A DNA stretch of 6,073 bases from Promethearchaeota archaeon. Lineage in GTDB: Archaea; Asgardarchaeota; Thorarchaeia; Thorarchaeales; Thorarchaeaceae. Location: positions 105,946 to 112,018 of the forward strand of contig JALVPN010000110.1 of the NCBI GenBank assembly GCA_027031765.1, given 5' to 3'. Within the stretch, counting starts at the first letter, position 1; the number at the start of each line of letters is the position of its first letter. The translations under genes were made by a program, and so were the position numbers. The notes under the pieces were generated by a model. That model was not told the origin of the DNA, ran no database searches, and saw nothing but the letters and a program-made list of their open reading frames with translations. Below are positions 2,495 to 6,073 of the stretch, in pieces.

Positions 2495-3487
2495 TTGACT
2501 GGGACTGCCATTCTTACTCATGGTGACCTCGATGGTATCACATCTGGTGCAATCTCACTGCTGGCCCACCCGTCCTCTGACGTCTACTTCTCCCGGCCCT
2601 CGCAGATTGCCAATGACCTGCGTCGTGTGGCCCGTGACAGTCCATCTGTGGTCGTCATCAGTGACATCGCAGTGAACGTGACCCTGTTCCCTGAGATACT
2701 AAGGGCACTTGAACGCTTCCCGGACTCGACCGTCGTCCACTGGATTGACCACCATCCAATACTTGACAGGCAACGAGAGGGGCTCGCGAAACGTGTTGAC
2801 CTGTTCCATGAAGTCGGCCCCTGTGCGGCTGAGCTCGTATACCGCAAGTTCGAGCCGCAGCTCCCTGAACATGCTGTCAGACTGGCCCTATACGGTGCAA
2901 TTGGTGACTACTGTGATGGTACGCCCTTTGCTGTTTCCCGACTTGAGGACTACGACAAGCGTACCCTCTACCTTGAGGCCGGCCTCCTCGTCCAGGCACT
3001 CCAGGAGATTGACTACCGTCACGAGAGCCGCGAACTCCTCCGGGCGCTCAGTCTTGGCATCCAGCCGAGCTCGATGGGGGACATCGTTGCCCTTGCCATG
3101 AAAGCGACGCGGATTGAGCACGAGATCTTCAGATACGTCAGGCAGGCTGCCAAGAAACACGGCCCTGTGGGCTATGTCATCGACATGCCCCTTGGGGGCT
3201 ACCGTGGGAAGTCCGCAAAGTTCGCAGCCTACGTCACTGACTCGAAGGTCGGCATCAGCGCCCGCTCATCTGATGGGGAGGTGGACATGAGCATCCGCAG
3301 GCGCAGGGCTGAGGTCGACCTCAACCGCGCCCTCCAAGAGGTGCTTGCAGACTTCGATGGTGCACACGGTGGTGGTCACCCAGCTGCCGCAGGTGCCAGC
3401 ATGTCGCGTGCGGACTTCCTGGAATTCGTGAGGCGTCTTGCAGAATACGTCGAGTCCATACGACCGGGGTCGACAGGTGCTGTGTAG
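2495..3487 (+). CDS. DHH/DHHA1 family phosphoesterase (archaeal RecJ-like/nanoRNase-like), 330 aa
   Basis: All family motifs are visible: THGDLDG (motif I), VVISD (II), WIDHH (III), CAAELVY, GAIGD (IV), and the DHHA1 elements MSIRR and GGGHPAAAG. TTG start with SD-like GGAGCTGA at 2481-2488. The substrate cannot be determined from sequence. Confidence 0.92.
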   Translation: MTGTAILTHGDLDGITSGAISLLAHPSSDVYFSRPSQIANDLRRVARDSPSVVVISDIAVNVTLFPEILRALERFPDSTVVHWIDHHPILDRQREGLAKRVDLFHEVGPCAAELVYRKFEPQLPEHAVRLALYGAIGDYCDGTPFAVSRLEDYDKRTLYLEAGLLVQALQEIDYRHESRELLRALSLGIQPSSMGDIVALAMKATRIEHEIFRYVRQAAKKHGPVGYVIDMPLGGYRGKSAKFAAYVTDSKVGISARSSDGEVDMSIRRRRAEVDLNRALQEVLADFDGAHGGGHPAAAGASMSRADFLEFVRRLAEYVESIRPGSTGAV

Positions 3488-3638: not shown

Positions 3639-3947
3639 TCAGTCCCCTGTGTGTCCAAGTATTGCCCTGTAGACCTCCTCTGGAGTCATCCCCCTGACCC
3701 GGAGAGTCTTCTCGCGACTCCTGTGTCCGGAAACTATTGTGACACGGCTCTGAGATACGCCGAGCAGCTTCGAGAGCCGCTTGACGAGCTCGGCGTTGGC
3801 CCGGCCGTCCCGTGGCCGGGCCCGGACGTTCATGACCACCACGTCCTCCTCCACTCCACCCACCAGTGTTCCCTCCTTTGAGCCCGTCCGGACACGCACT
3901 CGCAACAGAGCTCCGCCACCCTCAGCCCATACCGCTCGACCACTCAT
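3639..3947 (-). CDS. yggU: DUF167/UPF0235 (YggU-like) protein, about 102 aa
   Basis: Typical DUF167 pattern LRVRVRTGSK...VRARPRDGRANAELVKRLSKLLGV...VTIVSGHRSREKTLRV. The ATG at 3947 has GGTGA 5 nt upstream; an alternative ATG at 3959 adds 4 aa. Confidence 0.9.
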   Translation of the reverse strand: MSGRAVWAEGGGALLRVRVRTGSKEGTLVGGVEEDVVVMNVRARPRDGRANAELVKRLSKLLGVSQSRVTIVSGHRSREKTLRVRGMTPEEVYRAILGHTGD

Positions 3948-4101
3948 GGTGCTCACCATCTGTGCCCGCGGTGGTCGGCCTGCTATTGAGGTTTTGGGCC
4001 CTGCCCCTCCAACTGTATGTGTGATAAGGACTATGGGCTGTCGTCACAGACGGTGCCTACTGGGCGCCTGCCCCCTTCTAGACACCTATGTGCGGGATTT
4101 C

Positions 4102-4108: not shown

Positions 4109-4164
4109 GGGACTCCGGAGTAGATATTGTGCCGAATCCTCAGACTGACGGGGTGAACCAAGGA

Positions 4165-4545
4165 ATGAGTGATCCTGTTATGGATGCCTATACCAAGGCA
4201 TACAACGACTCCGGCCAGATGGTGCAGGCCTGGGGTGTCATCACTACTGCCGGACAGGTGTTGTGGCAGAGCAACAACTGGGACCTCACAGCAGACGCCC
4301 CACAGCTGGCCCAAGCTATTACTAGGGGTGCTACAAGTGTCACGCAGAACATGGTAAAGTACTCGGTGCTCAGGAAGACCGACGACAGTCTCGTGGCCAA
4401 GAACATGCAGGGGAATGGCATCCTGATCTTGGCCCGGATTGAAGGTCCGAAGTGGGTGGTCGCGTGGGCCTCCCCTGATGCGCAGCCCGACCTCGTGTAC
4501 ACCGATGTTGACCGGGCTGCTAGGACACTGAAGGGCAAGATATAA
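4165..4545 (+). CDS. Asgard archaeal profilin (copy 1, canonical-looking), 126 aa
   Basis: Profilin size and pattern: AWGVITTAGQVLWQSNNWDL, and SVTQNMVKYSVLRKTDDSLVAKN aligning to human PFN1 GLTLGGQKCSVIRDS...LRTK, followed by GILILAR, WVVAW and a C-terminal helix. ATG at 4165 with SD GGGGTGA at 4150-4156. The track ORF (3781) is the same frame extended upstream. Confidence 0.88.
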   Translation: MSDPVMDAYTKAYNDSGQMVQAWGVITTAGQVLWQSNNWDLTADAPQLAQAITRGATSVTQNMVKYSVLRKTDDSLVAKNMQGNGILILARIEGPKWVVAWASPDAQPDLVYTDVDRAARTLKGKI

Positions 4546-4630
4546 TCTCCCCTGTCCCTGTGTGACCGGGCCAGCGGCCGTCCGTGGGGCTCGCCAAGGT
4601 GGCCTGTCAGCTACTAGGTGTGGTGGTGTT

Positions 4631-5008
4631 GTGGCGGACGACACTATAGCCACGGAGTGGCAACTCCTACACGCGAACAACCCCTCCATTGGCGCCTTTG
4701 CGGTCTGTCATGGCCCAAAGGTCATCTGGCAGACCGACAACTGGGATCTCGTACCGTTCGCATCCGACATTGTGTGGGGGGCCGAGTCCCAAGCACCATC
4801 AATCACTGTGAGTGGTGTGTCATACGAGCGTGTGGACTCGGCAGAGGACTATTACCTGGGCCTTGCAGAGGGCAGTGGTGGCTGGCTGCTCATCAGTCGC
4901 ATGGAGGTCGACAAGTGGGTGGTGTGCTGGGCTGCGAGGGAGGCCGTCGGTGACCTGGCACTTGTTGATGTTGCCAAGACCGCAACGAACCTCATAGGTG
5001 CCATATGA
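4631..5008 (+). CDS. Divergent profilin-like paralog (copy 2), 125 aa
   Basis: Aligns nearly ungapped to copy 1 (about 37/126 identities by hand): VIWQTDNWDL vs VLWQSNNWDL; KWVVCWA...DL..DV..A..L.G.I vs KWVVAWA...DL..DV..A..L.G.I. A GTG at 4631 preceded by GGTGGTG gives the same length as copy 1. The track start at 4562 adds a non-homologous segment. Confidence 0.8.
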   Translation: MADDTIATEWQLLHANNPSIGAFAVCHGPKVIWQTDNWDLVPFASDIVWGAESQAPSITVSGVSYERVDSAEDYYLGLAEGSGGWLLISRMEVDKWVVCWAAREAVGDLALVDVAKTATNLIGAI

Positions 5009-5201
5009 CTGTTGCTTGACCCGGCTGTTCTTGCCACCATATCTCCCAGCGCTACAACCGGTGGTATGGACGTCTGGGGTGTAGTACAGCGCCATATCTG
5101 CGGTCAGCTGCCTCCACGGCCCGGACACTGCGGTGATGCCACGCCCCTGTCGTCCTGCCTGTTGGTGCCACCACGGCAGTACATGTTCTCCCAACTCCCA
5201 T

Positions 5202-5260: not shown

Positions 5261-5494
5261 ATGACAGTCACCGCGTTCATCATGATCAATATTGACGGCA
5301 ACAACCGAAAGGTCCTCGAAGAAATAATGGCAATCGAGGAGACTAGGGAAGCGTACATGGTATTCGGCCCATTTGACATCATAGCAAAGGCGGAGTTCAA
5401 GTCACATGAAGAACTGGGACGGTACGTGGTGGAGAAGATCCGTTCAATCGAGGGCGTAAGCGACACCCAGACGAACGTCTGTGCGGCCTGTTGA
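5261..5494 (+). CDS. Stand-alone Lrp/AsnC ligand-binding (RAM) domain protein without HTH, 77 aa
   Basis: Pattern AFIMINI...VLEEIMAIEETREAYMVFGPFDIIAKAE...EL..YVVEKIRSIEGVSDTQT matches the AsnC_trans_reg domain (VxGxxD, IxxIxGVxxTxT). SD GGAGG at 5250-5254. Confidence 0.9.
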   Translation: MTVTAFIMINIDGNNRKVLEEIMAIEETREAYMVFGPFDIIAKAEFKSHEELGRYVVEKIRSIEGVSDTQTNVCAAC

Positions 5495-5515: not shown

Positions 5516-6073
5516 TCACTGTTCTGAGAAGATTATCCCCCGGATGGCCTTCAGGGTCTCAATGTACTCCTCCGACCCCATGGTGTACGTGTCTATCAGC
5601 CACTCGTAGATCCTCAGGAGCTCCCGGTCCGTGACATCCCCCCTGACCATCTTGGCTATGCGTTTGTGATGACGGACACGCATCCTGATACTCTTTGCCT
5701 GGAGCCTGACAAGCTCCTCCTTGTCCTCCTCAGTCAGCTCTATTGCGAACGCCCTGCATGTCCTCTCAATCCACTCCGTTGCCATCCGCATGGTCTCTGT
5801 CTTGTCCATGCCAGCAATGCCGGTGGCAATGACAAACCCCTTTGCCGTACGCCTGTAGTAGTCCGTTGTCCGTTTCCCCGTCCTCACGGTTCCGTACTTC
5901 ACTACGAACCCGGCATCAATCAGCCTGGGGAGGTGGTGGTATACCTGGTTCTTTGTGAGCGGTTCGCACCCCTCACACCTGCCTGACATCTTGACAATCT
6001 CTACTACCGACATGATGTTCCGCATGACGACCCGCTGCCGTATGACCCTCTCACCGGTCTCCTTGTTGTACTC
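5516..6073 (-). CDS. Winged helix-turn-helix (ArsR-like) transcriptional regulator with helical C-terminal domain; 5'-truncated by the window edge
   Basis: Recognition helix and wing: LTKNQVYHHLPRLIDAGFVVKYGTVRTGKRTTDYYRRTA. The frame stays open beyond the track ATG at 6025 to the window end (EYNKETGERVIRQRVV-MRNIM), so the true start is probably outside the window. Confidence 0.82.
   Translation of the reverse strand, partial: EYNKETGERVIRQRVVMRNIMSVVEIVKMSGRCEGCEPLTKNQVYHHLPRLIDAGFVVKYGTVRTGKRTTDYYRRTAKGFVIATGIAGMDKTETMRMATEWIERTCRAFAIELTEEDKEELVRLQAKSIRMRVRHHKRIAKMVRGDVTDRELLRIYEWLIDTYTMGSEEYIETLKAIRGIIFSEQ

Follow-up and report, generated by a model that had tools for sequence, protein, structure and literature searches.

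The gene that follows the thorProfilin ortholog in the analysed window (the whole stretch of DNA, 6,073 nt long) encodes a genuine second profilin isoform, here named Thor profilin-2 and referred to below as copy 2. It is a real gene and not an oddity of this genome: in a six-frame search of 60 relatives, the tandem arrangement of copy 1 followed by copy 2 on the same strand was found in 36/36 family genomes, distributed across 16 genera. The preferred reading, to which a probability of about 0.5 is given, is that copy 2 would be an actin-binding isoform that is lipid-insensitive, in the sense that it binds lipids poorly. The original prediction had instead presented copy 2 as a charge-reversed profilin, a natural equivalent of a human R74-to-acid mutant.

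The tandem profilin locus and its gene models

The two profilin genes, the elements between them and the neighbouring genes are placed as follows (window coordinates; strand where assigned).

2-1105: DUF58/vWA gene, neighbour
967-2481: multi-pass membrane protein of 504 aa with a Glu/Arg-rich tail and no Pfam match; as listed, its first 139 nt are shared with the DUF58 gene
2495-3487: DHH/DHHA1 phosphoesterase, neighbour
3639-3959, minus strand: DUF167/YggU gene, neighbour
4141-4167: copy-1 start region, compared with L027:1940-2317(-) plus its upstream sequence and with 33 other copy-1 loci
4165-4545, plus strand: profilin copy 1 (126 aa), orthologous to thorProfilin, whose structure is solved
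4546-4630, plus strand: spacer between the profilin copies, 85 nt, GC-rich, without a TATA-like box
4617-4628, plus strand: SD-like GGTGTGGTGGTG, directly 5′ of the copy-2 start
4631-5008, plus strand: profilin copy 2, 125 aa plus stop, with a GTG start
4817-4867, plus strand: flagged segment VSYERVDSAEDYYLGLA of copy 2, strands beta4-beta5 (E63-71 and E74-79 in the model)
4835-4837, plus strand: D69 codon (GAC) of copy 2, in the column of copy-1 R70, Heimdall R88, an Asp in Odin and a Glu in Loki profilins
5261-5494: stand-alone Lrp/AsnC ligand-binding domain of 77 aa, neighbour
5516-6025, minus strand: PadR-like winged-helix protein, neighbour

The 125-aa model of copy 2 was backed by the public protein record, which is likewise of 125 aa, by the common start of 34 aligned orthologs and by the SD-like GGTG in front of it. 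A longer version starting at the GTG in position 4562 (148 aa) was rejected, given that the extension is unconserved, that the orthologs begin at the aligned Met after the SD-like motif and that the public protein has 125 aa. ORFs antisense to this region (4820-5194 on the minus strand, among others) were taken as GC-rich noise, with selection and homology lying on the plus-strand frame. In orthologous loci, the spacers between the two copies ranged from 29 to 190 nt, mostly 60-100 nt, with an SD-like motif 5′ of copy 2 in most of the 35 loci and a TATA-like box in just 2/35. Judging from these spacers, copy 2 is probably co-transcribed with copy 1. A single sequencing run containing the stretch was identified, a hydrothermal vent DNA metagenome from which it probably derives, and RNA runs containing it were absent among the listed holders.

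The copy-1 ATG is also preceded by a conserved SD-like sequence, ACGGGGTGA, and the comparison of this start region bears on the published thorProfilin. The copy 1 of locus L027 is the same as residues 20-145 of PDB 7PBH (compared by eye), and 34/34 copy-1 orthologs align from the Met of MSDPVM, with the conserved motif placed 5-8 nt before it. Moreover, a stop occurs within 1-2 codons upstream of this Met in 15 genomes, and the sister species represented by L028 presents no upstream start. By these alignments, residues 1-19 of 7PBH, published as an "extended N-terminus", probably stem from a start that was called too far upstream.

Homology, fold and conservation of copy 2

ThorProfilin (TFG12995.1) is the protein of PDB 7PBH (Survery et al. 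2021, PMC8410842; Inturi et al., bioRxiv 10.1101/2021.08.06.455371), with which copy 1 aligned at E 2.2e-51 and ~70% identity (by eye). Copy 2 matched the same structure by phmmer with E 2.5e-16, and a profile built from 35 copy-2 orthologs matched 7PBH at 8e-30, Odin profilin at 3.7e-13, Loki profilin-2 at 1.8e-12 and Loki profilin-1 at 1.1e-11. The two copies of the window aligned to each other without gaps over 96 residues, with 34% identity and E 1e-17. By these sequence matches, copy 2 is homologous to experimentally established profilins and shares a common origin and fold with thorProfilin, of which copy 1 is the ortholog and copy 2 the paralog. The AlphaFold model of copy 2, obtained from the 35-sequence alignment, reached a pLDDT of 95.9 and showed the element order H-E-E-H-E-E-E-E-E-H. 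Its top Foldseek match was the Odin profilin of the actin complex 5zza_P (TM 0.82/0.86, rmsd 1.4 Å), followed by the Loki-2, Loki-1, Thor and Heimdall profilins, the TM values for Asgard profilins ranging from 0.67 to 0.90; eukaryotic profilins (TM ~0.7) and roadblock proteins were found further down. The predicted structure of copy 2 thus has the profilin fold, in which terminal helices flank a central antiparallel sheet.

This membership is hidden from routine annotation. The Pfam Profilin model (PF00235) gave no match on copy 2 at E <= 0.1, and on copy 1 it gave E 2.2e-4 and 21.8 bits against a cut-off of 25. Since copy 1, a close thorProfilin ortholog, also misses the cut-off, the Pfam miss of copy 2 reflects a model trained on eukaryotes and not non-membership. 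All public records of copy-2 orthologs read "hypothetical protein", including TFG12994.1, whose accession adjoins that of the NMR-studied thorProfilin, and the members of the copy-2 clusters are labelled Candidatus Thorarchaeota. A description of this paralog was not found in the searchable literature; the profilin tree of Survery et al. is accompanied by a mention of "multiple events of duplications" (PMC8410842). A word-indexed protein search with copy 2 matched itself alone and an exhaustive HMMER search gave 17 matches, while the orthologs analysed here were gathered by whole-genome searches.

The tandem pair is a family trait, and Asgard families outside this one mostly gave a single profilin match. 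The flanking DUF167 and PadR-like genes were kept at 30/34 loci. Two observations from the relatives concern profilin genes of other architecture. In the sister family of the same order, the genome G037 has only one profilin gene (L037:1472-1846), and a weak profilin-like match (G037:C34:7713-7961, E 1.2e-4) was found on another contig within a 447-aa frame, a possible profilin domain that would be either remote or fused. The profilin domain of another Asgard family runs into a C-terminal extension of ~80 aa, in ORFs of 204-219 aa, a possible profilin fusion that was located as follows.

L099 and L104 (G044:C23:12400-13600 and G054:C241:1800-3000): profilins with the C-terminal extension, a conserved tail for which an amphipathic character is predicted

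Copy 2 evolves faster than copy 1, yet it is clearly under purifying selection. Nei-Gojobori estimates from five close pairs placed dN/dS at 0.05-0.22 in copy 2, against 0-0.05 in copy 1, the overall dN being 2.5 times higher in copy 2, and the mean column identity was 55% in copy 2 vs 78% in copy 1 (34 copy-1 orthologs). In a FastTree phylogeny of 85 sequences, copy 1 and copy 2 formed separate clades (support 0.77 and 0.98) with mean depths of 0.45 and 1.02 substitutions per site, respectively; the polarity of Arg gain vs loss discussed below was read from outgroup states and not from this tree. The faster rate, together with the longest terminal branch held by the window's copy, is what might suggest a decaying duplicate without function. 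Nevertheless, no in-frame stops occurred among the copy-2 matches of family genomes, the frame was intact in 35/35 extracted orthologs, 11 columns of the alignment were invariant and nine others nearly invariant, the fold was confidently predicted and the start is preceded by an SD-like motif. The pseudo-profilin option raised by the original prediction, understood as a decaying gene, is excluded by the dN/dS values, and a decaying, functionless duplicate is given next to no credence here.

The strongest conservation of copy 2 was observed in helix 1 (I6, W10, L13, Y14), in the W33-Q-T-x-N-W38 stretch and in the C-terminal helix. In particular, I6 (34/35), W10 (35/35), Y/F14 (His in the window), W33 (35/35), a hydrophobic residue at 119 and L121 are conserved, and these positions align with the thorProfilin equivalents of the polyproline site, as mapped through the 7PBH paper. 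Conservation extends to Y65, Y/F75, G84-H85 and, where the last helix begins, P107-E-L109...D113, and the columns of beta4-beta6 vary much more than their copy-1 counterparts. The copy 2 of the window is the most divergent ortholog. It breaks with the family at six positions that are conserved elsewhere, a higher number than in any other ortholog, carrying W85 in place of a His kept in 32/35 orthologs and G107 in place of a Pro kept in 34/35.

Charge and interface columns across Asgard profilins

The residues on which the original prediction was built are exact, with K65, R70 and K79 in copy 1 and S64, D69 and L78 in copy 2, and the same holds for its charge counts, 12 basic and 12 acidic residues in copy 1 and 6 basic and 17 acidic in copy 2. 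These amount to a net charge of 0 and a pI of 6.1 for copy 1, and to −11 and 4.2 for copy 2. The motif residues of the flagged segment were also right, but the segment had been placed at 4820-4870, 3 nt away from its true position at 4817-4867. It contains S64, the invariant Y65, R67, D69, Y75 and L78; VSYERVDSAEDYYLGLA begins at copy-2 residue 63 and VKYSVLRKTDDSLVAKN at copy-1 residue 64.

The acidic shift of copy 2 is a family-wide trait, beyond chance. Copy 2 was more acidic than copy 1 in 29/34 related genomes, with a mean net charge of −5.5 vs −1.3, counts that are descriptive only because the genomes are kin, and the window's copy 2 was the most acidic of the copy-2 set compared. The conserved basic residues of copy 1 comprise K65, R70, K79 (R in most orthologs), K/R91, K96, R117, K120, K123 and K125. 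Those at positions 91, 96, 120, 123 and 125 are missing from copy 2 and from most outgroups, and in the copy-2 orthologs the columns of K120, K123 and K125 are mainly hydrophobic or mixed.

The columns were compared among 34 copy-1 orthologs, 35 copy-2 orthologs and an outgroup of 16 single-copy Asgard profilins from other families. With respect to human PFN1, the correspondence of K69 to copy-1 K65 is supported by the published Odin K58 equivalence plus the alignment, that of R74 to copy-1 R70 would follow from the strand register, and that of R88 to copy-1 K79 is plausible through Heimdall R98.

The R70 column is occupied by R in 32/34 copy-1 orthologs. In copy 2 (n = 35) it contains A8, S8, E5, D3, T3, I3, Y2, H2 and K1, so that the Asp of the window is not a conserved feature of copy 2: D or E occurs in only 8/35 orthologs. 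In the 16 outgroup profilins the column contains Q10, D4, S1 and T1, and is basic in none. The solved structures align here with an Asp in Odin profilin and a Glu in Loki profilins 1 and 2, and for each of them a crystal structure with rabbit actin exists (PDB 5ZZA, 5YEE and 5ZZB; entry titles), the complex holding Odin profilin as chain P in 5ZZA being reportedly the work of Akil and Robinson from 2018. Since the column is non-basic in all 16 other Asgard profilins, D69 would not be the reversal of an ancestral Arg, and, since Odin and Loki profilins with Asp or Glu were crystallised on actin, an acid in this column is no predictor of lost actin binding. The proposal of a charge reversal, or of a natural R74-to-acid variant, was contradicted by these column states. 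R74E of human PFN1 is an engineered change in a lineage with a fixed Arg, and it is no valid guide to copy 2 because the Asgard column is naturally acidic or polar. An actin-dead protein of the R74E kind would be one that had lost a basic actin contact conserved in its own lineage, and copy 2 is not such a protein. The "R74-to-acid, actin-dead" reading is not supported; it moved a rule from a human mutant to a lineage in which the acidic or polar state is normal.

As the original prediction assumed, the R70/D69 column probably sits at the actin interface. In Heimdall LC3 profilin, R88 is among the residues that shift upon actin binding (PMC8410842), and it falls in the copy-1 R70 column by an alignment that is weak (E 0.075). 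Both basic and acidic states of this column occur among actin-binding Asgard profilins.

A similar distribution was found in the K79 column, which is R or K in 34/34 copy-1 orthologs, T21, S11, A2 and L1 in copy 2 (n = 35) and T12, K2, I1 and S1 in the 16 outgroups, with T in Odin, Loki-1 and Loki-2 profilins. In this alignment, it is copy 1 that departs from the common Asgard state, as Heimdall R98 does, and copy 2 that conforms to it. Given these outgroup states, the arginines at positions 70 and 79 would be specialities of copy 1, common to Heimdall LC3 profilin. The K65 column behaves otherwise, being K or R in 34/34 copy-1 orthologs and in 16/16 outgroups. In copy 2 (n = 35) it contains T8, K8, E8, S4, P3, R2, A1 and D1, and is basic in 10/35. 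As judged from these columns, the loss of Lys65 is real and specific to copy 2 (25/35 orthologs). A Lys in this column (human K69, Odin K58) has been proposed as a PIP2 contact (PMC8410842).

Other residues of the same region are retained. Two residues ahead of D69 in strand beta4 (E63-71), R67 is basic in 22/35 copy-2 orthologs, and the i/i+2 alternation of a beta-strand would place the side chains of R67 and D69 on one face. Copy 2 also retains Y/F75 (31/35) and G84 (35/35), which align, weakly (E 0.075), with Heimdall F95 and G104, whose Ala mutants presented a weaker actin regulation (PMC8410842).

The comparison with the solved profilins can be extended beyond single columns. Odin profilin resembles copy 2 in the Asp at the Arg74 column (VDSAED in copy 2 vs IDVNED in Odin), in the Thr/Ser at the next basic column and in the Gly-His motif; it differs in keeping the Lys of VKY (K58), shares 23% identity with copy 2 and is encoded in genomes with one profilin and no tandem pair. 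Loki profilin-1 and -2 (5YEE and 5ZZB) share the profilin fold (TM 0.82-0.90), the Thr of the copy-2 consensus at the next basic column and, at the Arg74 column, a Glu, an acid that occurs among copy-2 orthologs; unlike copy 2, they present a longer Loki loop and keep the Lys of IKY, at 19% identity. The actin contacts of Heimdall LC3 profilin were mapped (PDB 6YRR; PMC8410842), and copy 2 keeps the equivalents of its F95 and G104 in the alignment with E 0.075 but lacks the Arg found at both columns (R88 and R98), which copy 1 and eukaryotes share with Heimdall. Relative to thorProfilin, copy 2 lacks R70, R79, K96, K120, K123 and K125, is acidic, carries a Trp for a Tyr in helix 1, keeps a Gly-His motif that was lost by copy 1 and evolves ~2.5 times faster. 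Taken at the level of sequence, copy 1 is marked by a set of basic residues that is partly eukaryote- and Heimdall-like, and copy 2 by the general Asgard pattern minus Lys65, with an acidic character overall.

Functional readings of the second profilin

The preferred reading is that a tandem duplication would have given rise to copy 2, which would then have been fixed throughout this Thorarchaeota family and kept by purifying selection, probably under co-transcription with copy 1. Copy 2 would have kept the usual Asgard state, in which the Arg74 column is occupied by Asp, Glu, Gln, Ser or Ala and the next basic column by Thr or Ser; the eukaryote- and Heimdall-like arginines would be on copy 1. 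Based on the residue state of Odin and Loki profilins, which sit on actin in crystals, copy 2 is expected to use an Odin/Loki-type interface to bind the one actin of these organisms, which is highly conserved. Specific to copy 2 are three changes, namely the loss of the Lys65 equivalent, the loss of the basic C-terminal helix (copy-1 K120, K123 and K125) and the general acidic shift, and together they suggest a weak binding of anionic membrane lipids. The pair would therefore consist of a lipid-regulated basic isoform beside a lipid-insensitive acidic one. In eukaryotic isoform pairs of different pI, for example Acanthamoeba profilin I and II, it is mainly the affinity for PIP2 that differs, and by analogy this is the behaviour predicted for copy 1 and copy 2. 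Regarding the suggestion that copy 2 may bind neither canonical actin nor PIPs, a weaker binding of phosphoinositides and other anionic lipids is reasonable, as basic residues are missing, but the loss of actin binding finds no support, the acid being normal in Odin and Loki profilins.

Retained actin binding is supported by the Odin/Loki-like pattern, by the conservation of Y65, Y/F75, G84-H85, P107, L109 and D113, and by the presence of one family-wide actin. It is opposed by the loss of the Lys65 equivalent, replaced by Glu in 8/35 orthologs, and, in the window's copy, by the H85W and P107G changes. Moreover, the variability of beta4-beta6 in copy 2, despite a nearly invariant actin, could mean that its actin face is relaxed. 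In a tentative and rather unlikely alternative, copy 2 would have left actin to become a profilin-fold adaptor, whose patch of terminal helices and W33, the polyproline site of eukaryotes, would take another ligand, such as proline-rich proteins. This alternative draws on the strongest conservation of copy 2, which includes the polyproline-site equivalents (I6, W10, Y/F14, W33, 119 and L121), and it would also account for a beta4-beta6 face far more variable than that of copy 1 and for the missing Lys65. However, many of the conserved patch residues may belong to the core and not to the surface, the actin-face-region positions Y/F75, G84-H85 and P107-E-L109...D113 are conserved too, and Odin and Loki profilins show that actin can be bound with an acid at column 69.

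It is improbable that copy 2 acts as a partner or regulator of copy 1, either as a heterodimer or as an inhibitory decoy. The genes are adjacent and in the same order in 36/36 family genomes, their spacers suggest a probable co-transcription and the charges of the two products differ in this genome (0 vs −11), all of which would fit such a pairing. Nevertheless, a tandem position is simply what duplication leaves behind, both copies are acidic in several genomes (for example, −8/−4 and −4/−10) and the net charges of copy 1 and copy 2 correlate weakly, positively and in a non-complementary manner (Spearman rho +0.36). In addition, profilins are normally monomeric in action.

The actin complement of these genomes bears on whether copy 2 serves another actin-family protein than copy 1. 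Family genomes have one conserved actin, 89-94% identical across the family, and in this genome a second gene of the actin family occurs as well, divergent and with ~32% identity to canonical actin.

L041:1294-2409 (G000 contig C111), plus strand: the divergent second gene of the actin family, encoding 371 aa and scoring 120 bits against the Pfam Actin model

When this paralog was used as the query in 36 other family genomes, 35 gave canonical actin only and G029 (74% complete) gave nothing, whereas copy 2 is present in all 36; the remaining second actin-family matches were sporadic (G015, G023 and G034). As the query recovered the paralog from none of these 36 genomes, a separate actin partner for copy 2 is very unlikely, an outcome that leaves the suggestion of a different actin paralog as its partner with little ground.

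A side observation was made on the actin genes themselves. In 6/36 family genomes (G022, G013, G015, G008, G019 and G023), the match to actin has 30 extra nt and one in-frame stop. The loci with the insert and the reference are as follows.

L062:814-1983(+): actin gene with the 30-nt insert
L066:1498-2667(-): actin gene with the 30-nt insert
L067:1498-2667(-): actin gene with the 30-nt insert
L071:1498-2667(-): actin gene with the 30-nt insert
L073:1501-2670(+): actin gene with the 30-nt insert
L040:1474-2613(+): reference actin gene without the insert

The insertion site is identical in the five genomes aligned (G022, G013, G015, G008 and G019), between codons Q358 and K359, and the in-frame TGA or TAA is followed by the conserved last 20 residues in frame. 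Deletion of the 30 nt restores FQ(K/R)MW, and sister species within the same genera are without the insert. The RNA can be folded into an outer helix, a 4-bp helix CCAG/CUGG, a 3-nt bulge and a 9-bp hairpin, with a bulge-helix-bulge-like look, and compensatory changes were observed in the fold of G019 and G008. The insert is put forward as a candidate mini-intron of a protein-coding mRNA; alternatively, the stop may be read through or the actin may be truncated and lack its C-terminus. No clear description of it was found in a limited literature search.

A more speculative possibility, put forward as a doubtful one, is a two-profilin division of labour in Thorarchaeota, independent of the eukaryotic isoform families, in which the basic copy 1 couples actin to membranes and the acidic copy 2 has been freed for a new partner. 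In such a division, copy 2, with an invariant Trp-rich patch of terminal helices and without the lipid-binding lysines, would take as its partner either a distinct state of actin or a protein of proline-rich or formin-like kind.

Reconstructions of the rise of regulated actin dynamics before eukaryotes make use of Asgard profilins, and among those of Thorarchaeota copy 1 alone has been studied to date; its conserved neighbour has been annotated as "hypothetical protein". Thorarchaeota of this family have two profilin isoforms of different charge, not one, and the eukaryote-like Arg is confined to one of them. An acid at the Arg74 column is normal for actin-binding Asgard profilins, and rules derived from human PFN1 mutants consequently need checking before they are transferred to this lineage. 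Copy 2 is thus an unannotated, conserved second profilin isoform, relevant to work on the Asgard cytoskeleton.
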